Below are positions 27,080 through 52,456 of a stretch of DNA of 52,935 bases, piece after piece. The position numbers and the translations under genes are program-made. The DNA is taken from the NCBI GenBank assembly GCA_024614105.1, contig GCA_024614105.1_4894.1; one strand, written 5' to 3'. The notes beneath the pieces are model-generated. The model saw only the letters and a program-made list of their open reading frames with translations. It ran no database searches and was not told where the DNA came from. Numbering within the stretch: position 1 is the first letter of the stretch; each line of letters starts with the position of its first letter. This DNA comes from a phage.

Positions 27080-29047
27080 TTAGTGTGCCTCTGCCCAGTT
27101 ACTTTCTATCTTAGCATCAGTAAGAACAGGTACACGAAGCGGTAACACAGTTTCCATGACCCGTACGAAATCATAGAATCCATCTTCTGCTTGCTTACCA
27201 GTTGGTAGAGAGAAGTTAAGCTCATCGTGTACCGTCAGGCGAGGCACGCCAATCACGTCAAAGTAACCGTCTTCATACCCTTTCAGCATTGCAGACTTCA
27301 TCTGGTCTGCTGACGACCCTTGCAGCACTCGGTTGATTGCTTTGTGGGTGTCTGCCAGTTTAATGTTTGGACCATACTCCTGACGTGCTTCTTCAAATGG
27401 TAAAGGCGTCTTACCGAATCCACCACGTTTTGGGACCCATTTGTTGAACCACGTCTTCCGGCCCATAAAGGTTTCTACATACCCCTGGCTATAACATAAA
27501 TCTTCATAATGCTTCATGGTAGCACCAATGAATGGTGCACCCTGATGGTACGCCTTCAGAACAGGTTCTGCTTCTTCAGGCGTCATTGCTAACTTACGGG
27601 CAAGAGCATTAAGCATCATGCCATATAACAAACCAAAGTTGATGGTCTTGGCCGGCTTACGCTCTATAACGTGACCTGAGGCTTCCTTGATAATATCGAC
27701 CATAACATTGTGGTAATCTGCTTCCGGGTTAGCCGCGAAAATTGCTCGTAACTCATCAGCGCCCGGGCCGACTGCAAAATGCGCCATGAATCGATATTCA
27801 ATTTGGGCGTAGTCTGCTGATCCCCATCTATGTCCGACGTCCGGTACGAAACAAGCACGAAGGAGTGGTCCCAGTATTTTGTGTCTAGACGGTATATTCT
27901 GCAGATTAGGGTCAGATGAGCTAAACCGACCACTAACGGTTCCACCGTCATCACCGCGCATTTGATGGAATTGACCGTGAAGGAAGCCATTTGTATTCAT
28001 CCCCAATATGTAGCCACGAATAAACGTGGACTGGATTTTCTCATAAGACTTAATCTCAGACACCAGTTCCGCAAACGGATGGTGCAAGCCTGCTAAGAAG
28101 TCTGCCGTAAACGACGGATTACCCGCCGCTGTTCTGAAGTACTCCAGACCTAAATGGTCAAATGCAAGAGCTAAGTCCGGACCTGAGTTAACGTTAATGT
28201 TAAAACCAATCTGGTCTTTAATCTGCTGGTGCATTTTCCTTATTTCAGCGCTAAGCGTATCATCCGCCTCCTTGGCCTTGTCAAGGTCAACACGTACACC
28301 TGCAAAACGCATCTTAAGCATTAATGGAATGAGTTTGCACTCCATATAGAATACGTCTGTTAAACACCAGCGACTTAACAATGGCCACTGGGCTTTGATA
28401 ATGTGTATTGGTAAGTCGGCGTCAGATTCAGCATAGTAACCCACAAGACGAGGAGGCGTTTTGTAGATGTACTTTCTGGCTTCACCTGTTGGCTTACAGC
28501 CATAAGCATCTGAAATCCATTGGTACATCTCGGCTGAGTCTTTACCTTCGCCTACATATTTTCGTCCAAGTCCTTCAAGTGCAACACGCGCGCCTGGGTC
28601 AAGTAATGCTTCCGCGAATTGTACATCCATGCACAATCCTTTAACTTCCACGCCTTCTGCTGCAAGCCAGCCCAAGTCATATGTGATGTTAGCACCGACT
28701 TTAACTTGGTTAGGTCGCGAGAGTTCGAGCCGAAGCCAACCAAGTACTTCCTCAACTGGAAGGTTATCCTCTTCGCCGAGCTCGTGTCTGATTGGGTAGT
28801 AAGCTTTGAAGCCGTTGTCCGTAGCGATACTAACTCCAACGATATGACCCTCCCTCCTGGCCCAACCACTACCATTTGTATCCATCCCTGGGTCGTATGT
28901 TTCACAGTCAAGACCGATAATCTTTGCAGAAGACAAGTCCGGGTAATGCGCGCGCGGCCGCCATCCAGTATCCCTGACGTATGGGATAGGACGGCTGATA
29001 GGTTTAACATTCTTTGCACCTTCGAAGCTATCGAATAAAAAGCTCAT
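27080..29047 (-). CDS. DNA polymerase, family A, with 3'-5' exonuclease domain
   Basis: 655 aa; exo motif IIGLDCETY; polymerase motifs DYAQIEYRF, KTINFGLLYG and VHDE; ATGA coupling with upstream gene. Confidence 0.9.
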   Translation of the reverse strand: MSFLFDSFEGAKNVKPISRPIPYVRDTGWRPRAHYPDLSSAKIIGLDCETYDPGMDTNGSGWARREGHIVGVSIATDNGFKAYYPIRHELGEEDNLPVEEVLGWLRLELSRPNQVKVGANITYDLGWLAAEGVEVKGLCMDVQFAEALLDPGARVALEGLGRKYVGEGKDSAEMYQWISDAYGCKPTGEARKYIYKTPPRLVGYYAESDADLPIHIIKAQWPLLSRWCLTDVFYMECKLIPLMLKMRFAGVRVDLDKAKEADDTLSAEIRKMHQQIKDQIGFNINVNSGPDLALAFDHLGLEYFRTAAGNPSFTADFLAGLHHPFAELVSEIKSYEKIQSTFIRGYILGMNTNGFLHGQFHQMRGDDGGTVSGRFSSSDPNLQNIPSRHKILGPLLRACFVPDVGHRWGSADYAQIEYRFMAHFAVGPGADELRAIFAANPEADYHNVMVDIIKEASGHVIERKPAKTINFGLLYGMMLNALARKLAMTPEEAEPVLKAYHQGAPFIGATMKHYEDLCYSQGYVETFMGRKTWFNKWVPKRGGFGKTPLPFEEARQEYGPNIKLADTHKAINRVLQGSSADQMKSAMLKGYEDGYFDVIGVPRLTVHDELNFSLPTGKQAEDGFYDFVRVMETVLPLRVPVLTDAKIESNWAEAH

Positions 29048-30042
29048 CAGTCCCCTCTCACATACGCAATTACAACTGTACGAGTTGAGTTTTCCATTTT
29101 GAGCGCCTGACTACCAAGTCCTATTCTTTCCATGCCTTTAGCCAGTTTACTCATCTGACTAATAACACAGTTGAATGGTTTACTAAACTTAGTCGACTGG
29201 AACTTAATGTCGACGGACATCTTTGGAATAATCTTATCTGGTAAGTCTGCCTTTGCAGTTGACTCACCTGTTATCTCCAGAATGGCTTGACCTTCGTCGT
29301 ACCCAGTAAGCTGGTCCATGACTTCCAGGAACTCAGGAGTGATGGCCTGCATATCCATTTCCATATTGAAGAACTTCGATACGTCTGGCCATTTGGCTGC
29401 AAGTACCGGGGCATCCATCTGTACACCATCCGCAAAGCCGAAGAACATCTGGCCGCGGGCGTATCCTACACTTGTGGGTTCCATCTTCAGCTTAACCAGA
29501 GCCTCAAGCATTGGTTTGGCTATGGCACATTCAAATTCAAAATCTACGTTCAACTTCTCGCGTATCATATACTTACCGTTAGTAGCGTAAGCATAACCAT
29601 CGCGCAGAAGTAAAGATGTAGCCCATACCTGCGGTGCTTCGTTAGGTACCCACTTGGCTAAGGCAGTTAATACCGGGAGTAATTCGCCATGCGCTGAATA
29701 CCAGTTGTTAACTGTAGCAAGCGGCGGTATTGGTTCATTAAGCGCTTGCATTCTTGTTTTAAGTACACCTGCTGTGACTGTGAGGTTTCCAGCGGCTGTA
29801 ATGTTAAAAGTAATCTGTTCAGTTCTTGCCGCATTAACGGCCTTACGAAATGATTCAGCATCCACTTGCAGGTCTGGGAATCCTTTACATGGCGCTCGTA
29901 GTAATACGTTCTTGTAGTATGAATGGATTGTTCCGTCTGCAATCCATATTTTGCCCATAAGACCACTATCAGTATACTTGATGGGACGAGCTTGTTGAAC
30001 GGCAGTCTGTATTTGTTTGGTGTCATAGTTAAACTTGCTCAT
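29047..30042 (-). CDS. hypothetical protein, translationally coupled to DNA polymerase
   Basis: 331 aa; start directly preceded by a GC hairpin with UUCG loop and no clear SD; no motif recognised. Confidence 0.5.
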   Translation of the reverse strand: MSKFNYDTKQIQTAVQQARPIKYTDSGLMGKIWIADGTIHSYYKNVLLRAPCKGFPDLQVDAESFRKAVNAARTEQITFNITAAGNLTVTAGVLKTRMQALNEPIPPLATVNNWYSAHGELLPVLTALAKWVPNEAPQVWATSLLLRDGYAYATNGKYMIREKLNVDFEFECAIAKPMLEALVKLKMEPTSVGYARGQMFFGFADGVQMDAPVLAAKWPDVSKFFNMEMDMQAITPEFLEVMDQLTGYDEGQAILEITGESTAKADLPDKIIPKMSVDIKFQSTKFSKPFNCVISQMSKLAKGMERIGLGSQALKMENSTRTVVIAYVRGD

Positions 30043-30072: not shown

Positions 30073-30957
30073 TTATACGGCCATTTGGAGTTTGATGTTC
30101 GGCATAGGTTTGTATTTCTCAACCATTGGCGTAACATCGGCAGGAGTGAAGTCAAACACTGACACGTCGTAAATTGCGTTAATGTCAGGACGACCTTCAA
30201 AGTTAGTGTCCAGTGTAGTATCAGAATTGCTTACGATACGTTGCAGGAAAATCTTTGCCGCATCGATATGATTCTGATAGATGTGGTAATCGCCCAGCGT
30301 AACAGTCATATCGCCTACACCAGTACCAAGCTCAGCAGCAATGGTAATTTGCAACATCTGATGCAGCAGAATATCGTGAGGTAGGCCGAGAATAACATCC
30401 GCGCTACGCATGTGGAACATCAGCTCTAGTTCATTACGGTTGTTAATGAACAGCTGAAAACCATGGTAGCAAGGCGGAAGGGCCATGGCGTCCATCTCTT
30501 GTGGGTTCCACGCCGTAATGTACGCCCGGCGGTCAGTAGGCTTAACCTTCAGCGTTTCAATAACGTCTTTAAGCTGGTTAGTAAGAACACCATTCTTATA
30601 GAATGGCTTAATCCATTGCACGCCGTACACAGGACCTAAGTCACGGTTGTCTGGCGTACCCCAACGTTTGTTTGCATCCTGCAGGTTACCTTCCCACCAG
30701 TTGCAGCCAAAGCCTTTGAGCGTGTCGACGTTTGAAATGCCGTTGATAAAGCAATAAAGCTCAGCAGCAACAGCTTTGATGTTAACAGGCTTAAACACCG
30801 GCACCATCAGTTTGTTGTCGTTGAAAGCCAGCTTAAATGCTGTACCAAAACAACGGCGGGTACCAACACCTGTACGGTCTACAACATCCTCGCCTTTACG
30901 CAGGATAAAAGAAATGATGTCGCTGTAAAGAGAATCGACAGTGCTGTATGTTTTCAT
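30073..30957 (-). CDS. thymidylate synthase-family enzyme with Asp at the Asn177-equivalent position (candidate dCMP hydroxymethylase/methylase)
   Basis: 294 aa; DLGPVYGVQW and ALPPCYHGFQLF (catalytic Cys) motifs; RSADVILGLPHD aligns gap-free to E. coli RSCDVFLGLPFN, placing Asp where ThyA has Asn. Confidence 0.75.
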   Translation of the reverse strand: MKTYSTVDSLYSDIISFILRKGEDVVDRTGVGTRRCFGTAFKLAFNDNKLMVPVFKPVNIKAVAAELYCFINGISNVDTLKGFGCNWWEGNLQDANKRWGTPDNRDLGPVYGVQWIKPFYKNGVLTNQLKDVIETLKVKPTDRRAYITAWNPQEMDAMALPPCYHGFQLFINNRNELELMFHMRSADVILGLPHDILLHQMLQITIAAELGTGVGDMTVTLGDYHIYQNHIDAAKIFLQRIVSNSDTTLDTNFEGRPDINAIYDVSVFDFTPADVTPMVEKYKPMPNIKLQMAV

Positions 30958-31550
30958 TAAAACAGTTCCTTTTGAGCCGGGTTAACGTGTGCGTCGATGA
31001 TGGCCTGGATGTCAGGTGCTTTCCATCCTTCAGGCTTAACAATATCCTGACCAGACTTATGCTTACTGTTGCTTGCATCAGGCTTAGCACGCTCTTTCGC
31101 CATGTTAGCAGTCTGTACCGCATCCCATGCAGCATCAAGCGGCCAGTTGTTGTTTGCACACCAGGTAATCAGGTGGATAATTAACTGGGCCAGACGGTCG
31201 CAATGGGTGTCTTCAGTATCTTTAACGTATACGATAAGACCATCAGCATCGAAGCGGTCCATAAATCCGCATGGCGTGGTTAACAGAATCGGATACTCAA
31301 ATTCGTTGGTGAACCATGCAGTCTGGTCATACAGGTATAACGTACCTGCAGCAATATAAATTAAATCTACAATACCGTCTAAGAATCCAGCTTTGTCGCC
31401 ATCCTTCTTAGCTTGCTTAATTTCTTCCATCTCCTCAATAAGACGGTCGTAGCGAAGCTTGAACTCAGGTTTACCGCCTTGGCTAACAGGCTTGAGGTCA
31501 AACTTCTCATGAAAAGCGGTAACGCCTGCAGCAATTTTACTGAATCGCAT
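30957..31550 (-). CDS. MazG-like nucleoside triphosphate pyrophosphohydrolase
   Basis: 197 aa; EExxE-type motif LIEEMEEIKQ and DGIVDLIY; TAATG coupling to the TS-family gene. Confidence 0.6.
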   Translation of the reverse strand: MRFSKIAAGVTAFHEKFDLKPVSQGGKPEFKLRYDRLIEEMEEIKQAKKDGDKAGFLDGIVDLIYIAAGTLYLYDQTAWFTNEFEYPILLTTPCGFMDRFDADGLIVYVKDTEDTHCDRLAQLIIHLITWCANNNWPLDAAWDAVQTANMAKERAKPDASNSKHKSGQDIVKPEGWKAPDIQAIIDAHVNPAQKELF

Positions 31551-31935
31551 TTCGTAACTCCTTACAAACAGTTTCGATAAACTTACGTTTAATTTCTGTA
31601 GACCAGATAATATGACGAGCCTGTTCTAAAGTGTCCCAACGTTCTTTACCCACAGGAAAGGGAACAATGAAAAGGCCGGTACGGGATATGCGCTTGATAA
31701 ACGGGAATTTACAGCGCATGGTTGTTTCAAACTTGATAAAGTTTGTTTGCACTTCGCGTGTAAACTTGACCTTATCAAATTCATGTTCAAGAGTTTGAGC
31801 AATGTTGCATACTTCCTGGAAAGAAGATGCAGGCAAGTAATCTTCGCGGCCGACTGTGTTCACGTAGTCGATTTGGCCCTCTAGCCGAAGTATCCAAATC
31901 CTGTAATAAGCTTCAGCAACACGTTGTAGGTTCAT
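31537..31935 (-). CDS. hypothetical protein
   Basis: 132 aa; RBS AGAGGAGAG; first gene after promoter at 31962-31990. Confidence 0.45.
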   Translation of the reverse strand: MNLQRVAEAYYRIWILRLEGQIDYVNTVGREDYLPASSFQEVCNIAQTLEHEFDKVKFTREVQTNFIKFETTMRCKFPFIKRISRTGLFIVPFPVGKERWDTLEQARHIIWSTEIKRKFIETVCKELRNAIQ

Positions 31936-31961: not shown

Positions 31962-31990
31962 ATTATACCACATCACTCTCTAGTGGTAAA
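31962..31990 (-). promoter_or_regulatory. sigma70-type promoter with CCAC/GTGG dyad in spacer
   Basis: Minus strand: TTTACC (rc of 31985-31990), 17-nt spacer, TATAAT (rc of 31962-31967). Confidence 0.5.
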
Positions 31991-32010
31991 GCACTTTTTA
32001 CGCTTCTGGT

Positions 32011-32046
32011 AAAAATAAAAAGGACCAGCGTTAACTGGTCCTTTTG
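32011..32046. terminator. bidirectional intrinsic terminator
   Basis: AGGACCAG / CTGGTCCT stem flanked by A-run (32011-32020) and T-run. Confidence 0.6.
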
Positions 32047-35124: not shown

Positions 35125-36003
35125 TTATTTTAAGGAAAGTTTAACGGGCTTCTCATCCTGTGGGAAGACATCAGCAGGGCGATACTCATCGCAAGCCGCT
35201 AATTGCTCTTCGATTGTTTCGAGCTCTTTCTGATGCTTGTTGCAGTACCACACTTTGCCCTGAAGCGGTTTACTGTAATGGCAGGTTCTGCAGTTCCTGT
35301 CTGGCATTGCTCCTTTGTGGCACAGGTGATGGTATTCGCACATCCCTGGTTTGCACTCCCACCAAATAGGCGATTCAGAAATCTTCGGCATATCCAAACC
35401 AGATTCCGCATATACAACAGCCTCCGCTTTACTCAGTTGTATGTCGCTTTCCAGTAAGTCAATATCGACCACTTCAAAATACATCTCGTCAGTGTTCTTA
35501 TTGATTGCAATGTACACAGCTTGATTCAGCTTAAGCTTCCGCATGTATACCTGCATCTGGGCGTAGTGTACCGGCTTACTTGCTTTAACAGACTTGAGCT
35601 TGACTAACTCTTTAAACGACTTATCACCATGCGTCTTGAATTCAGCAAGTGCCCATACGCCTTTGTATTTAATTACACAGTCACAAGACCCGGAGAAGAT
35701 GTCATTGAATTCGTGTATGCGCCATTGCTTACCCGTCTTGGGATTGACGTCCAGCACTTCGTCACATACGGTGCGAAGCCACTTTACAATTCTGCTTTCT
35801 TCAAGGTTACCACGTTCAAACAGACGAAGTTGCTTAGCAGAAAACTTCTCCTTGAACGACCAGTGCAGAACGTGCCAAAGATAGCGATAGCAGTTGTGTC
35901 CTATCTGCGATGCTCCAAGATGCCCGCGTCGCTCTTCTCTTTCGTGGGCTTCGACTATCTTGATGTCGATACGCTTCTGCAGGTCGTCAAACGGACTGGG
36001 CAT
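35125..36003 (-). CDS. PD-(D/E)xK nuclease with C-terminal Cys cluster (Cas4/RecB-like exonuclease)
   Basis: Start at ATG 36003 with RBS GAGGAG; ..D..V...G.WALAEFKT.. core; C-terminal C-x7-C-x5-C...C-x2-C cluster. Confidence 0.6.
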   Translation of the reverse strand: MPSPFDDLQKRIDIKIVEAHEREERRGHLGASQIGHNCYRYLWHVLHWSFKEKFSAKQLRLFERGNLEESRIVKWLRTVCDEVLDVNPKTGKQWRIHEFNDIFSGSCDCVIKYKGVWALAEFKTHGDKSFKELVKLKSVKASKPVHYAQMQVYMRKLKLNQAVYIAINKNTDEMYFEVVDIDLLESDIQLSKAEAVVYAESGLDMPKISESPIWWECKPGMCEYHHLCHKGAMPDRNCRTCHYSKPLQGKVWYCNKHQKELETIEEQLAACDEYRPADVFPQDEKPVKLSLK

Positions 36004-36472
36004 TGTTAAACTCCTCAACACTGAATTCATCGTACACAATATTATGAGCCCACAAATGAGCGACGGCATTTGCCATGCTTTCCTTCCATTTGGATTGTGA
36101 AGCTGTATGCGCCAATGCAACTACACGTACCAGGTTAAGGTTGGCTATCAGCATGTCTGCACAATGTTCGCACGGCGGGTAGGTTATGTAGATGGTAACC
36201 GGGCCTAATGAAGGAGTGTCTAACTCCCTCCTTATATTAGCTAAGGTGTTTATCTCGCTATGAATAGTTAGAGCGTTCTTGAGGCTATTAGGCACTATCC
36301 TTATAGAGTCTAACTGCGTAGGCAGACCGTTATATCCAGTGGAAATAATACGCTTGTTCTGGTCCACAAGAACGCTACCGACTTGACGTTTCGGGTCCTT
36401 CGACCAGCTTGCAACTTCACAAGCTATGCGCATAAACCGCCTGTCCCACTTGTCCATCTTCTTCTTTTGCAT
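35987..36472 (-). CDS. dCMP deaminase (cytidine/deoxycytidylate deaminase fold)
   Basis: 161 aa; zinc-binding HSE(INTL) and PCEHC motifs; RBS GGAG. Confidence 0.75.
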   Translation of the reverse strand: MQKKKMDKWDRRFMRIACEVASWSKDPKRQVGSVLVDQNKRIISTGYNGLPTQLDSIRIVPNSLKNALTIHSEINTLANIRRELDTPSLGPVTIYITYPPCEHCADMLIANLNLVRVVALAHTASQSKWKESMANAVAHLWAHNIVYDEFSVEEFNNAQSV

Positions 36473-49680: not shown

Positions 49681-49800
49681 AAAAATATAATTTCAATCTG
49701 AATTATAGACGCTTTGTACTATACCGGCCGAAGTAGTTCACACGGTAATTGTACCAATCATAATAGTTACCAGGGTAATCATTTCAATTGAAATAGGTGC

Positions 49801-49860
49801 GGCGGGGGGTAATTTCGCAGGGGTGCTACCTGCCAGGAGCCAGCAAAATTTTTTTATTTT
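49801..49860. repeat. direct repeat unit B (about 50 bp) in noncoding control region
   Basis: GGCGGGGGGTAATTTCGCAGGGGTGCTACCTGCCAGGAGCCAGCAAAATTTTTTTATTTT; a third partial AAAATTTTTTTATATTTTTC tract at 49947-49975. Confidence 0.5.
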
Positions 49861-50084
49861 TTCTCTATTTTCTCCTTATCAGGACCAATCATCATCAGAT
49901 TGATACAACAGGAGCTAACCTTTTGCCTAACACAATAATAAGTGAAGCCCCTCTAAAATTTTTTTATATTTTTCGGAAATTGTGTAGACACTCACTAAAA
50001 AGTGGTGTACTTTCTCTCCTCCACGCGCTATCATTAATGCGAATAATCAAACGGCCTCACGGTCTCCTACTTGTGGGTAACATT

Positions 50085-50570
50085 ATGAAAATTGTTCAAT
50101 TAGAGCCATATCCGCCTCAATTGGCTATCGTTTGTAGCGAAAAAGAGCACGAAGAGCTCCAAAAACTGATGGATTTGCCTGATTTTGGCAACTGGAATGA
50201 CCGCGAAACGCGTACTGCATCTACCTTTACGTTCTCTCGCGTTAACTATCCGTACCTGTTAATCGTCGTCGAGCTGTACCACCCGGACGACCTGAAGTAC
50301 AACACCATTTCCCACGAAGGCATTCACGTAATGTCATCGCTGATGAACTATGTTGGCCTTAAATACGACCCAGAAAACGATGAATGGTACGCATATCAGC
50401 ATGATTTCATCGTAAATGCCATTTGTAAGGCCCATGACGAGTATACAGAGCGCCAAAAAGCGCCAAAAACTAAGCAAAAAATCGAAACAGGCAATCATCC
50501 TGTGATACAGCCACAAGACGTTATGAACTCGCTTTTGACTGACACTACTGGGGACTTTTTAGGTGATTAA
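50085..50570 (+). CDS. hypothetical protein with HExxH motif (possible small zinc metalloprotein)
   Basis: 161 aa from ATG 50085 (MKIVQLEPY); HEGIH followed by Glu about 20 residues later; upstream part of the longer ORF lacks RBS. Confidence 0.45.
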   Translation: MKIVQLEPYPPQLAIVCSEKEHEELQKLMDLPDFGNWNDRETRTASTFTFSRVNYPYLLIVVELYHPDDLKYNTISHEGIHVMSSLMNYVGLKYDPENDEWYAYQHDFIVNAICKAHDEYTERQKAPKTKQKIETGNHPVIQPQDVMNSLLTDTTGDFLGD

Positions 50571-51237
50571 TATAATCTTCGCAATGGGCCAAAATGGGGA
50601 ATTCGGGTTATCTCCGGAGTTTATGAAGCATCAGGTTGACTCATGCAAGACCATGGAAGAGGTTCGGGCGCTTCCTAAATCTGGTCTGCCCTGGAAATGT
50701 CCGTCAGATATGCTCTTTTTCAGGACTATGACTAATTCAATTGCGACAGAACCAGGCTATAATGCATATCAGCAACTACGTGGACAGTTCCCACAAGACC
50801 AGTTGCGAAACATGATAGCAGATGTAACGGTAAAAATGGTCGGGCATAGTGTATTGTTAGCCGGTCGTAATACGTATATGACTATGAGTCTGCCTATGTC
50901 AGCCCACAGAATACTGCTGCCGGTATCTCGCCAGATTATGGCTTCAGAAGGCTACAATAATCTGGGTGAGATGGCAGCAGACCTCGAATCCAGGGGTACT
51001 GACGTCTGGATTGTAGGCGGTGCCGAGTTGATACTTTCGGCCCTTGAAGAACACGCAAAAGACTTACTCCGTATCGACAACATGTTTATCAGTACGATCA
51101 AGCAATCAGGTCCAAGTGATATTTTAATGGATTGTAGAAAATTAATGATGTACATTGATAGCGACTTCACTTATAATGATGAATATGTTGATAACAAACA
51201 AGTTCTGATACAACGATACAGGAGTTTACACAAATGA
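50563..51237 (+). CDS. dihydrofolate reductase
   Basis: 224 aa; GTG start; N-terminal INIIFAMGQNGEFG, LPW..P.D..FF..T, VLLAGRNTY and VWIVGGAELI blocks match the DHFR layout. Confidence 0.7.
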   Translation: MINIIFAMGQNGEFGLSPEFMKHQVDSCKTMEEVRALPKSGLPWKCPSDMLFFRTMTNSIATEPGYNAYQQLRGQFPQDQLRNMIADVTVKMVGHSVLLAGRNTYMTMSLPMSAHRILLPVSRQIMASEGYNNLGEMAADLESRGTDVWIVGGAELILSALEEHAKDLLRIDNMFISTIKQSGPSDILMDCRKLMMYIDSDFTYNDEYVDNKQVLIQRYRSLHK

Positions 51238-51740
51238 ACATCATAATCGAGGGGCCCGACAATGCTGGTAAATCTACACTTATTGAGTTCCTTAAATCTC
51301 ATACTGGCCGCAATGTTATTCATAATACTGTTGATAAAGACCCCGAATCGGTCATGGCTAAACAGGCCAAAGAAAACGCGTTGGAAGGCGATTGCATTTA
51401 TGATCGTAGCGCTGTTATATCTGAGTATATCTATTGCCTGGTTCTTCAACGTACGCCTGTCATCAATATTAATGTATCACATGTAGCAGATATGTGTGAC
51501 AACGCCATCGTTATCTTTTGTATGCCGCCTGTTGAAAAGGTACTGGCAACTACAAAAGACGAAATGCCTGGTGTTGTGGAAAATCTTGAGGCGTTATACA
51601 ATCAGTATGACAACCTCATTGATGAACTGGTTCTGATGAGCAAGCAGTTCTTCATTTACGACTGGACTGTTGAAGAAGACGGTCCTGAAGCAGCTCTCGA
51701 ATATATCAACGAACGTATTAATAAGGAGTGGAACAAATGA
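51234..51740 (+). CDS. P-loop nucleotide kinase (dNMP kinase-like)
   Basis: 168 aa; Walker A GPDNAGKST near N-terminus; ATGA coupling to DHFR gene. Confidence 0.55.
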   Translation: MNIIIEGPDNAGKSTLIEFLKSHTGRNVIHNTVDKDPESVMAKQAKENALEGDCIYDRSAVISEYIYCLVLQRTPVININVSHVADMCDNAIVIFCMPPVEKVLATTKDEMPGVVENLEALYNQYDNLIDELVLMSKQFFIYDWTVEEDGPEAALEYINERINKEWNK

Positions 51741-52456
51741 GCCCAGTATACAGTAGCACAATCACACTGTCAGCAACCGTAGGGGACGTCAACAAGACCG
51801 TTACTGTGGGTTCAACTAACCCGAACCTGTCAGGCGAAGACCTGCTGCGCCTGGCCAAACGTGCTCTTGAAGATAACGAAGTGACTGGTACCGAAGGCGT
51901 CAGCATCGAAATTAACGTCGAAGGATGTCCGCACAGCGTCAGCATTGCGACCTCTTCATTGCAGGAGGATGAAACTCGTGAACAGCTGGAAACTAAAAAG
52001 TTCAACGACGAGCTGGAATATCGTACTGGTGAGATGTTCAGCAGTGCGCTAAACTGGTACTTGTGCAAGGCCTCGGGTTATACTGGTGCTCCTATGTCAG
52101 ACCGCATGTTAGCTGATATGTCAGCACGTGAAATAGCTAAAGGCTGGGCGCATGTACAGATGCTGCAGGAGCATATCTGCAAGCTGGAAAGCTGCAATAA
52201 AGACGCGTCTGAGCTTATTACTGCCTATAAGCGACAGATTAACGACCTGCAGCAACTGATGGGCAAACGCGCTGAAGAATATGAGGCTGAGATTCGTAGC
52301 CTTAACGGTACAGCTGTTGCTAACAACCGTGCTTTCAGCGAAGAGCGTAAAGCGCTTATTGCTCAGCGTGACGCTGAAAAACGTCGTGCAGACGACCTGG
52401 CAGACCGTCTTAACTTTATCCGTAAGCATATGGATGCTATGGAAGGGGTAATCTGA
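51737..52456 (+). CDS. hypothetical protein
   Basis: 240 aa from ATG 51737 with RBS AAGGAG; coiled-coil-like C-terminal half. Confidence 0.45.
   Translation: MSPVYSSTITLSATVGDVNKTVTVGSTNPNLSGEDLLRLAKRALEDNEVTGTEGVSIEINVEGCPHSVSIATSSLQEDETREQLETKKFNDELEYRTGEMFSSALNWYLCKASGYTGAPMSDRMLADMSAREIAKGWAHVQMLQEHICKLESCNKDASELITAYKRQINDLQQLMGKRAEEYEAEIRSLNGTAVANNRAFSEERKALIAQRDAEKRRADDLADRLNFIRKHMDAMEGVI

Follow-up and report, generated by a model that had tools for sequence, protein, structure and literature searches.

The siphoviruses Xp12 and PaMx74 (Bosavirus and Pamexvirus) carry a gene cassette for the replacement of cytosine by 5-methylcytosine (5mC), consisting of a thymidylate synthase (TS) homolog with Asp at the position of ThyA Asn177, a PRA-PH pyrophosphatase, a deaminase of the dCMP (deoxycytidine monophosphate) family, a dihydrofolate reductase (DHFR) and a family A DNA polymerase (PolA), without a TS acting on dUMP (deoxyuridine monophosphate). 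In each characterised case this cassette goes with full replacement, and the domain set of TS, PRA-PH, deaminase and PolA is enriched on cytosine-modified contigs from metaviromes, where the deaminase is found together with Thymidylat_synt, PRA-PH, DNA_pol_A and a 3'-5' exonuclease (bioRxiv 10.1101/2024.12.05.627091). With these systems in mind, we analysed the open reading frame (ORF) at 30073-30957 (minus strand) of phage contig GCA_024614105.1_4894.1, the whole of which, 52,935 nt, is called the window below. The window is a complete Rosemountvirus-type myovirus genome of 46.1% G+C, 97-98% identical to Escherichia phage vB_EcoBD_211, to the Salmonella phages BP63, PA13076 and LPSEYT and to the E. 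coli phages JEP7, swi3 and CF2, and it holds every element of the cassette while lacking a dUMP-type TS. We propose, with a probability of roughly 0.7, that the ORF encodes a dCMP C5-methyltransferase (5-methyl-dCMP synthase) of the ThyA family, which would feed the replacement of cytosine by 5mC in the phage DNA. Fold, active-site residues, clade signature, gene set and synteny are observed here, and from them we infer the substrate, the product and the extent of replacement.

The thymidylate synthase homolog and its residue signature

The ORF is exact at these coordinates, starts with ATG, encodes 294 amino acids and carries both motifs, ALPPCYHGFQLF and MRSADVILGLPHD, that were quoted in the initial annotation, which had called a TS homolog here without giving the strand. 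That call was correct: Pfam Thymidylat_synt (PF00303) matches the protein full-length (profile positions 3-266 of 266, E=2.3e-62), phmmer against the PDB retrieves 124 TS chains, headed by M. tuberculosis ThyA (9e-41), and R21, R126, R127, C146, R166, S167, H207 and Y209 (E. coli ThyA numbering) are conserved, as befits a member of the TS/dCMP hydroxymethylase superfamily. The combination Asn177, Gln165 and His147 that marks dUMP-specific ThyA (EC 2.1.1.45) is absent, the window enzyme having Asp195, Met183 and Tyr164 instead. Its scores fall well short of the cutoffs set for two NCBIfam equivalog models, NF002497 (187 vs 327) and NF002496 (166 vs 325), but exceed that of the looser model TIGR03284 (172 vs 108).

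HMMER aligns MRSADVILGLPHDILLH of the window enzyme without gaps to QRSADLFLGVPFNIASY of M. tuberculosis ThyA, and two MAFFT alignments, one of 8 and one of 128 sequences with E. coli K-12 ThyA as numbering reference, both place Asp195 (GAT codon 30373..30375, minus strand) at Asn177, the specificity-switch position, and Cys163 (TGC codon 30469..30471, minus strand) at the catalytic nucleophile Cys146. Because Asp195 is flanked by the invariant residues R166, S167, D169 and G173, its assignment in the alignment is unambiguous; the gap-free hand alignment of the initial annotation had arrived at the same Asp and the same retained nucleophile. The remaining equivalences are Tyr164 for H147, Met183 for Q165, His194 for F176, Leu160 for L143 and Asp187 for D169. 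R21, E58, W80, W83, Y94, L143, C146, R166, S167, D169, H207 and Y209 of ThyA are all kept, as is the C-terminal tail, which reads ...NIKLQMAV in the window enzyme and ...NIKxQMAV across its clade.

This clade is sharply delimited. A homolog search covering 5.8 billion proteins returned 31 clusters at 50% identity or more (E <= 1e-88), followed by a drop to ~37% (E ~1e-41), where ordinary cellular ThyA sequences begin; the majority of the 31 clusters lie on contigs of 44-54 kb, the size of phage genomes. At positions 147, 165, 176 and 177, cellular-type homologs have His, Gln, Phe and Asn without exception (89 of 89), whereas the first three are Tyr, Met and His in 31 of 31 members of the phage clade and position 177 is Asp in 29 of the 31, a residue found there in none of the 89 cellular-type sequences retrieved. 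By this comparison, Asp177 is a property of the clade and no stray or chance substitution. In ThyA, Gln165 orients Asn177. Our alignment has Gln165 replaced in validated dCMP enzymes too, by Met in T4 gp42 and by Leu in PaMx74. Positions 177 and 147 were also the two best discriminators between TS homologs on cytosine-modified and on unmodified viral contigs (MetaGPA, PMC8670742), and TS N-to-D mutants are dCMP methylases, as papers citing the original studies report (Liu & Santi 1992; Hardy & Nalivaika 1992).

These counts bear directly on the most conventional reading, in which the protein is an ordinary dTMP synthase that acts on dUMP despite its Asp, with the deaminase supplying dUMP, DHFR recycling folate and the modification of the relatives' DNA (see below) having some other cause. 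The gene is labelled plain thymidylate synthase in every GenBank record of relatives that we saw, its best scores are against real ThyA enzymes, two clade members have Asn177, and a deaminase, TS, DHFR and Tmk make up the classical dTMP pathway too, which is how the authors of the S144 study understood them (PMC7432712). Against this stand the division between invariant Asn177 in the cellular-type homologs and Asp177 in 29 of 31 clade members, the additional replacement of His147 and Gln165, and the switch to dCMP that the N-to-D mutation brings about according to those citing papers. Moreover, our genome scans brought up no alternative modification enzyme, yet the block on the DNA of relatives is specific to C-containing sites. 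We regard a dUMP-acting enzyme as very improbable, the least probable of the readings considered here.

With the engineered mutants (L. casei N229D, E. coli N177D) the window enzyme shares a near-canonical active site in which Asn has become Asp; unlike them, it is a natural protein with clade-wide changes at 147, 165 and 176 as well as insertions, and its activity is a prediction. It shares Asp at the N177 position also with RB69 gp48 and DLP3 gp80, TS homologs that act on dCMP (PMC13326640), but both Asp169 and Leu143, which are changed in these two (D169N and L143E), are unaltered in the window enzyme.

Gene set and expected product

Which group the enzyme would transfer can be read from published signatures. 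Hydroxymethylases, typified by T4 dCMP hydroxymethylase (dCH), activate water through an Asp or Glu located three positions ahead of the catalytic Cys, contain a Ser/Thr-x-Tyr motif, have Val in place of Trp83 and lack the C-terminal tail (PMC6400193; PMC13326640), and the 5-hydroxy-dCMP synthases of RB69, DLP3 and RL38JI are marked by D169N (PMC13326640). Leu143, GPVYG (as in E. coli), Trp80, Trp83, Asp169 and the C-terminus are retained in the window enzyme and throughout its clade. The features expected of a dCMP methylase are thus present, namely Asp at the N177 position together with a hydrophobic residue at 143 (Leu160) and Asp169 (Asp187), and the retained residues fit a methylase, whose active site is sealed and hydrophobic and works by hydride transfer. 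Membership in the sequence clade of the validated Xp12 enzyme is not among these features, the two enzymes being 28% identical and falling in separate clades. An assignment as 5-hydroxy-dCMP synthase of the RB69 gp48/DLP3 gp80 type was rejected on account of Asp187.

A gp42-like hydroxymethylase, with 5-hydroxymethylcytosine (5hmC) in the virion DNA as a possible handle for further groups, was likewise rejected as a type, given Leu160 at Cys-3, GPVYG instead of Ser/Thr-x-Tyr, Trp83 and the ...NIKLQMAV tail. Asp177 and Met165 are common to T4 gp42 and the window enzyme, and the resistance of S144 DNA described below would be equally compatible with 5hmC; identity to gp42 is, however, only 21%, and each element of the published signature fails. 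A hydroxymethylase would also release tetrahydrofolate (THF), leaving the phage DHFR without a role as there is no other TS, whereas a reductive methylase makes dihydrofolate (DHF), and for this reason too we favour the methylase. Moreover, no glycosyltransferase or other transferase was found in our Pfam scans, and ScaI cuts DNA of the relative fHy-Eco03 but not 5hmC-containing T4gt DNA. Taken together, hydroxymethylation appears unlikely. Of the "dCMP 5-(hydroxy)methylase" put forward in the initial annotation, the dCMP-directed C5 transferase is therefore supported by alignments, clade, context and the relatives' data, and of its two products methyl is favoured over hydroxymethyl. In vivo, five of seven natural Asp177 homologs and the Xp12 enzyme made 5-methyldeoxycytidine (5mdC) (bioRxiv 10.1101/2024.12.05.627091).

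The gene is translationally coupled to an all-alpha NTP pyrophosphohydrolase of the PRA-PH/MazG-like type (30957..31550, minus strand, 197 aa; Pfam 2e-07, PHROG 1.3e-24), a candidate dCTPase/dUTPase whose stop codon (30959-30957) has one base in common with the TS start codon (30957-30955) in the sequence TAATG. It has the all-alpha fold of the dimeric d(C/U)TPases and their metal-binding motif EExxE...DxxxD, with E39, E40, E43, D58 and D62 invariant; phmmer finds marginal PDB matches only (3NL9, 0.048; DR2231, ~0.1). The coupling and the MazG-like identity given in the initial annotation are confirmed; its proposed analogy to T4 gp56 holds for the fold class, and sequence homology to gp56 was rejected (BLASTP E=7.3). 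A small cytidine deaminase of the dCMP/dCTP type (35987..36472, minus strand, 161 aa; Pfam 2.3e-21) carries the motifs HSE71-73 and PCEHC100-104 and is 34-36% identical to the deaminases of Xp12 and PaMx74. Its best PDB match is 7FH4, the PBCV-1 dCMP/dCTP deaminase (9.7e-12), which has been named the closest structure to the 5-methyl-dCTP-selective deaminase mSCD-B5; such a deaminase was proposed to make dTTP from 5mdCTP and so to bypass a dUMP-type TS (bioRxiv 10.1101/2024.12.05.627091). Because the window has no dUMP-type TS, the more probable role of its deaminase, as in Xp12 and mSCD-B5, is to produce dTTP/dTMP from 5-methyl-dC nucleotides rather than to supply a TS with dUMP.

The set is completed at the other end of the genome by a DHFR (50563..51237, plus strand, 224 aa; Pfam DHFR_1 8.3e-07, 29.3 bits vs cutoff 25; phrog_316, 7.2e-26) and a Tmk-like dNMP kinase (51234..51740, plus strand, 168 aa; phrog_761 'thymidylate kinase', 2.7e-26), a candidate 5-methyl-dCMP/dTMP kinase with weak, below-cutoff matches to Pfam dNK and Thymidylate_kin. 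Deaminase, DHFR and P-loop kinase had all been named at these places before and are recovered by Pfam and PHROG. Pfam scans covered the 66 ORFs of the complete genome, the genome-wide scan comprising the best 25 of 45 families and every non-structural ORF of at least ~65 aa being scanned singly. Among the 66 ORFs there is a single Thymidylat_synt protein; a second TS was not found, and ThyX, glycosyltransferases and DNA methyltransferases gave no strong match, in agreement with the earlier failure to recognise an Asn-type ThyA or a glycosyltransferase. TET/JBP, aminotransferase and radical-SAM domains were not found among the non-structural ORFs.

We propose the following pathway, with putative roles for pyrophosphatase, kinase and deaminase. 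The coupled pyrophosphatase would hydrolyse dCTP (and dUTP) to the monophosphate, removing canonical dCTP and supplying dCMP. Cys163 would attack C6 of dCMP while Asp195 protonates and hydrogen-bonds N3/N4 of the cytosine; methylenetetrahydrofolate (CH2-THF) would give the carbon, and since Leu160, Trp and the C-terminal tail would keep the active site closed and hydrophobic, THF would then donate a hydride, yielding the methyl group and DHF. The phage DHFR would regenerate THF, and the Tmk-like kinase with the host nucleoside diphosphate kinase would make 5-methyl-dCTP for incorporation by the phage PolA. Finally, the phage deaminase would turn part of the 5-methyl-dC nucleotide pool into dT nucleotides, so that, under this proposal, a dUMP-type TS would not be needed.

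Judged by sequence and gene content, the closest paradigm is the 5mC cassette of Xp12 and PaMx74 and not T4. As in these phages, the enzyme of the window has the ThyA fold and Asp at N177, and both Gln165 and His147 are substituted; a homologous PRA-PH pyrophosphatase is encoded directly upstream of it (E 1e-08 to 7e-11), the small deaminase is homologous, a second TS is missing, and the replication module includes DHFR, PolA, a helicase of the SF2 type and a Cas4-like nuclease. Unlike in Xp12, the pyrophosphatase has an internal insert and no C-terminal extension; unlike in both phages, the genes are dispersed, the deaminase lying 5 kb away and DHFR and kinase at the opposite genome end, and the phage is a myovirus with Enterobacteriaceae hosts. 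The initial annotation had likened the locus to the T4 enzyme set, and a nucleotide-pool rewriting set is indeed common to both (dCTPase-type pyrophosphatase, Asp177 TS homolog, dNMP kinase, deaminase and DHFR), the pyrophosphatase sharing the fold class of gp56. Here the likeness to T4 (gp42, gp56, gp1, cd, frd) ends, however: the hydroxymethylase signature is missing, gp56 shows no pairwise similarity, and the window has neither a separate td gene nor glucosyltransferases. The enzymes named are present, then, but Xp12 and PaMx74 provide the closer match.

DNA of related phages

Two relatives have DNA with published restriction behaviour. The TS of S144 (Loughboroughvirus) is 73% identical to the window enzyme and has the same residue signature; S144 DNA resists all seven enzymes with C/G-containing sites (XhoI, EheI, Bsp120I, Cfr42I, NotI, MauBI and SspDI) and is cut only by SspI and PacI, from which its authors concluded that cytosine is modified, while finding no responsible gene and considering the TS an ordinary enzyme of dTMP synthesis (PMC7432712). 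The TS of fHy-Eco03 has this signature as well, and the near-identical TS of KE25 is 58% identical to the window enzyme; fHy-Eco03 DNA resists AflII, EagI, NcoI, NotI, Sau3AI, SmaI and SphI and is cut only by ScaI, into exactly the predicted fragments, which was ascribed to "an unknown modification" not explicable from known methylation sensitivities (PMC8145870). In a systematic survey of how Type II enzymes act on phage DNA with modified bases, those of the resisted enzymes that were scored are all blocked on the 5mC DNA of Xp12, and ScaI is partial on Xp12 DNA and fully blocked on the 5hmC DNA of T4gt (PMC7653180). The restriction profile of the relatives is thus like that of Xp12: by analogy, their digestion patterns agree with 5mC, and cleavage by ScaI speaks against 5hmC or bulkier groups.

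The same data speak to two variants in which the enzyme acts on dCMP. In one of them, 5-methyl-dCMP would be merely an intermediate on a methylate-then-deaminate route to dTMP, leaving little or no 5mC in DNA. The deaminase and the missing dUMP-type TS would suit such a route, and Xp12 and mSCD-B5 are documented cases in which 5-methyl-dC nucleotides are deaminated to dT nucleotides (bioRxiv 10.1101/2024.12.05.627091); the DNA of two relatives nevertheless resists C-site enzymes in a 5mC-like pattern, the coupling of the TS to an enzyme of the d(C/U)TPase fold points to dCTP being actively excluded, and in the characterised cases (Xp12, PaMx74) the cassette goes with full replacement. We consider a purely metabolic role of 5-methyl-dCMP improbable, if slightly less so than the other alternatives. 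In the second variant, 5mC or another initial product would be further modified after replication by an uncharacterised protein to a hypermodified cytosine. Several conserved ORFs without assignable function might provide it, such as ORF132 and the two proteins of 257 and 242 aa on either side of DHFR and kinase (all described below), and the fHy-Eco03 authors' failure to explain the block would be accounted for. On the other hand, the Pfam scans contain no TET/JBP, glycosyltransferase, aminotransferase or radical-SAM domain, ScaI digests fHy-Eco03 DNA although even 5hmC blocks this enzyme, and plain 5mC already explains the whole pattern. Further decoration by a neighbouring gene product, which had been suggested for this locus, thus finds no support, and we give hypermodification little credence.

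Several observations weigh against replacement of cytosine by 5mC through this enzyme. Two of the seven Asp177 homologs mentioned above gave no 5mdC (bioRxiv 10.1101/2024.12.05.627091). Product specificity is deduced here from signatures and not from orthology, as the enzyme stands outside the Xp12 clade, and the specificities of pyrophosphatase, kinase and deaminase are predicted roles. Since the two Asn177 members of the clade, P0013 and P0020, have this residue on the Tyr147/Met165/His176 scaffold, residues 147, 165 and 176 alone are no proof of dCMP specificity. The DNA data come from relatives with TS 73% and ~58% identical, none of them above 90%, and ScaI digestion is complete on fHy-Eco03 DNA but only partial on Xp12 DNA. 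Finally, phage CF2, 97.5% identical to the window, was isolated on E. coli K-12 MG1655, which is McrBC+, and this is unexpected for fully 5mC DNA, although McrBC was reported to be barely active in vitro on the fully substituted DNA of Xp12.

The record of CF2 (KY608966.1) describes a 53-kb, Rosemountvirus-like genome with K-12 MG1655 as host, is marked UNVERIFIED, has no annotation and is filed under Straboviridae; Tequatrovirus, evidently a taxonomy error. As regards site usage in the window, C/G-containing 6-bp palindromes show no class-wide avoidance (mean z -0.45 vs -0.66 for AT-only palindromes), which would be in keeping with a protective modification, a comparison too weak to serve as evidence. 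Under a maximal-order Markov model, 155.5 GATC sites are expected and 22 observed, a ~7-fold under-representation (z=-13.6). GATATC does not occur at all (12.6 expected), there is a depletion of CATG and CTAG as well, and the authors of fHy-Eco03 count no more than 9 GATC sites over 57 kb (PMC8145870). Dam/MutH or a 5mC-insensitive system of the DpnII/MboI type are possibilities for the avoidance of GATC in a phage predicted to carry GAT(5mC).

Origin of the enzyme, neighbouring genes and meaning

The window enzyme is no ortholog of its counterparts in Xp12 and PaMx74, with which it aligns at lower scores (92-97 bits) than with cellular ThyA (136-176 bits). The Xp12 clade is separate and no closer to it than to ThyA, has Pro, Leu and Tyr where the window enzyme has Tyr147, Met165 and His176, and differs from it in the C-terminus, which in the window enzyme is that of canonical ThyA. 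Because of this asymmetry in bit scores, we infer that the Asn-to-Asp switch arose independently on a ThyA-like ancestor, which would then have been joined to a replication module sharing pyrophosphatase and deaminase with Xp12-like phages. In the neighbour-joining tree, whose deep-node bootstrap values are unusable after re-rooting, P0013 and P0020 are nested inside the phage clade, where they adjoin KE25-type sequences with bootstrap 84; both lie on metagenomic contigs of 1.0-1.6 kb and read 'LGLPHNIV', which looks like a natural Asp-to-Asn reversion. More tentatively, and rather doubtful as a whole, the enzyme of Rosemountvirus and Loughboroughvirus might represent an independent, recent and ThyA-proximal dCMP methylation, convergent with Xp12 and with a specificity residue that still toggles, in fully 5mC phages able to plaque on McrBC+/McrA+/Mrr+ E. 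coli K-12.

The TS gene appears to be part of a putative transcription unit in the order ORF132, pyrophosphatase, TS, clamp-like protein and PolA, beginning at 31962..32045 (minus strand), where consensus matches alone mark a terminator-like hairpin (32045-32018) and, behind it, a site resembling an extended -10 promoter (31990-31962). Its first gene, ORF132 (31537..31935, minus strand), overlaps the start of the pyrophosphatase gene by 14 nt and encodes a conserved helical protein of 132 aa belonging to phrog_36727, of unknown function and with close homologs only. The AlphaFold2 model of ORF132 is all-helical (mean confidence score, pLDDT, 87.8), and neither a Pfam match nor a structural neighbour in the PDB was found for it (Foldseek, best E=0.8). 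Downstream of the TS gene in the same unit lie the genes of the clamp-like protein, which has 331 aa and is labelled DNA polymerase processivity factor in other annotations (29047-30042, minus strand), and of PolA (27080-29047, minus strand).

The longest ORF of the Cas4/PD-(D/E)XK-like exonuclease (35125-36120, minus strand) has a TTG start at 36120 and would overlap the deaminase gene by 134 nt; related genomes have it annotated shorter, at ~290 aa, so that translation probably begins at an internal ATG beyond the stop codon of the deaminase gene. DHFR and kinase are flanked, with overlaps of a few bases, by genes for the two proteins of unknown function at 49797-50570 (plus strand, 257 aa, phrog_1365) and 51728-52456 (plus strand, 242 aa, phrog_37540), which are probably co-transcribed with them. 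The matching ORFs are among the most variable between the two genera (S144 paper, PMC7432712), and their products could be host-takeover or anti-defence proteins. In the fHy-Eco03 record (MW602648.1), TS, pyrophosphatase, ORF132, polymerase, helicase and exonuclease are annotated as 'virion associated' from liquid chromatography-tandem mass spectrometry (LC-MS/MS) of particles, which may reflect either carry-over of replication proteins in the preparation or packaging.

The kind of system described here is already known, and what appears to be new is its assignment to this widely used phage group; the literature, subscription-only papers being outside the scope of our search, yielded no prior statement of 5mC or of a dCMP methylase in Rosemountvirus or Loughboroughvirus. 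Cytosine methylation at the nucleotide level would explain two published puzzles, the restriction-blocking modifications of S144 and of fHy-Eco03 DNA, and it would correct a pervasive annotation, as more than 60 deposited genomes of the group label the gene plain thymidylate synthase. Many of these phages are under development for biocontrol and therapy of Salmonella and E. coli, and the chemistry of their DNA governs which hosts they infect, how sensitive they are to restriction-modification and type IV systems and how they behave when sequenced, cloned or mapped with restriction enzymes.

If the proposal is true, the group would provide easily grown enterobacterial phages with fully 5mC DNA, a convenient alternative to the Xanthomonas phage Xp12 as a 5mC standard, as well as probes of McrBC, McrA and Mrr. 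Such phages would need a counter-measure to type IV restriction, for which conserved ORFs such as ORF132 are perhaps candidates, or else their fully substituted DNA would evade those systems. Being nearer to genuine ThyA than the Xp12 enzyme, and with natural Asn variants in its clade, the enzyme offers a clean system for studying the switch between dUMP and dCMP, and the toggling between Asp and Asn within the clade would then constitute a natural series for the evolution of TS specificity.

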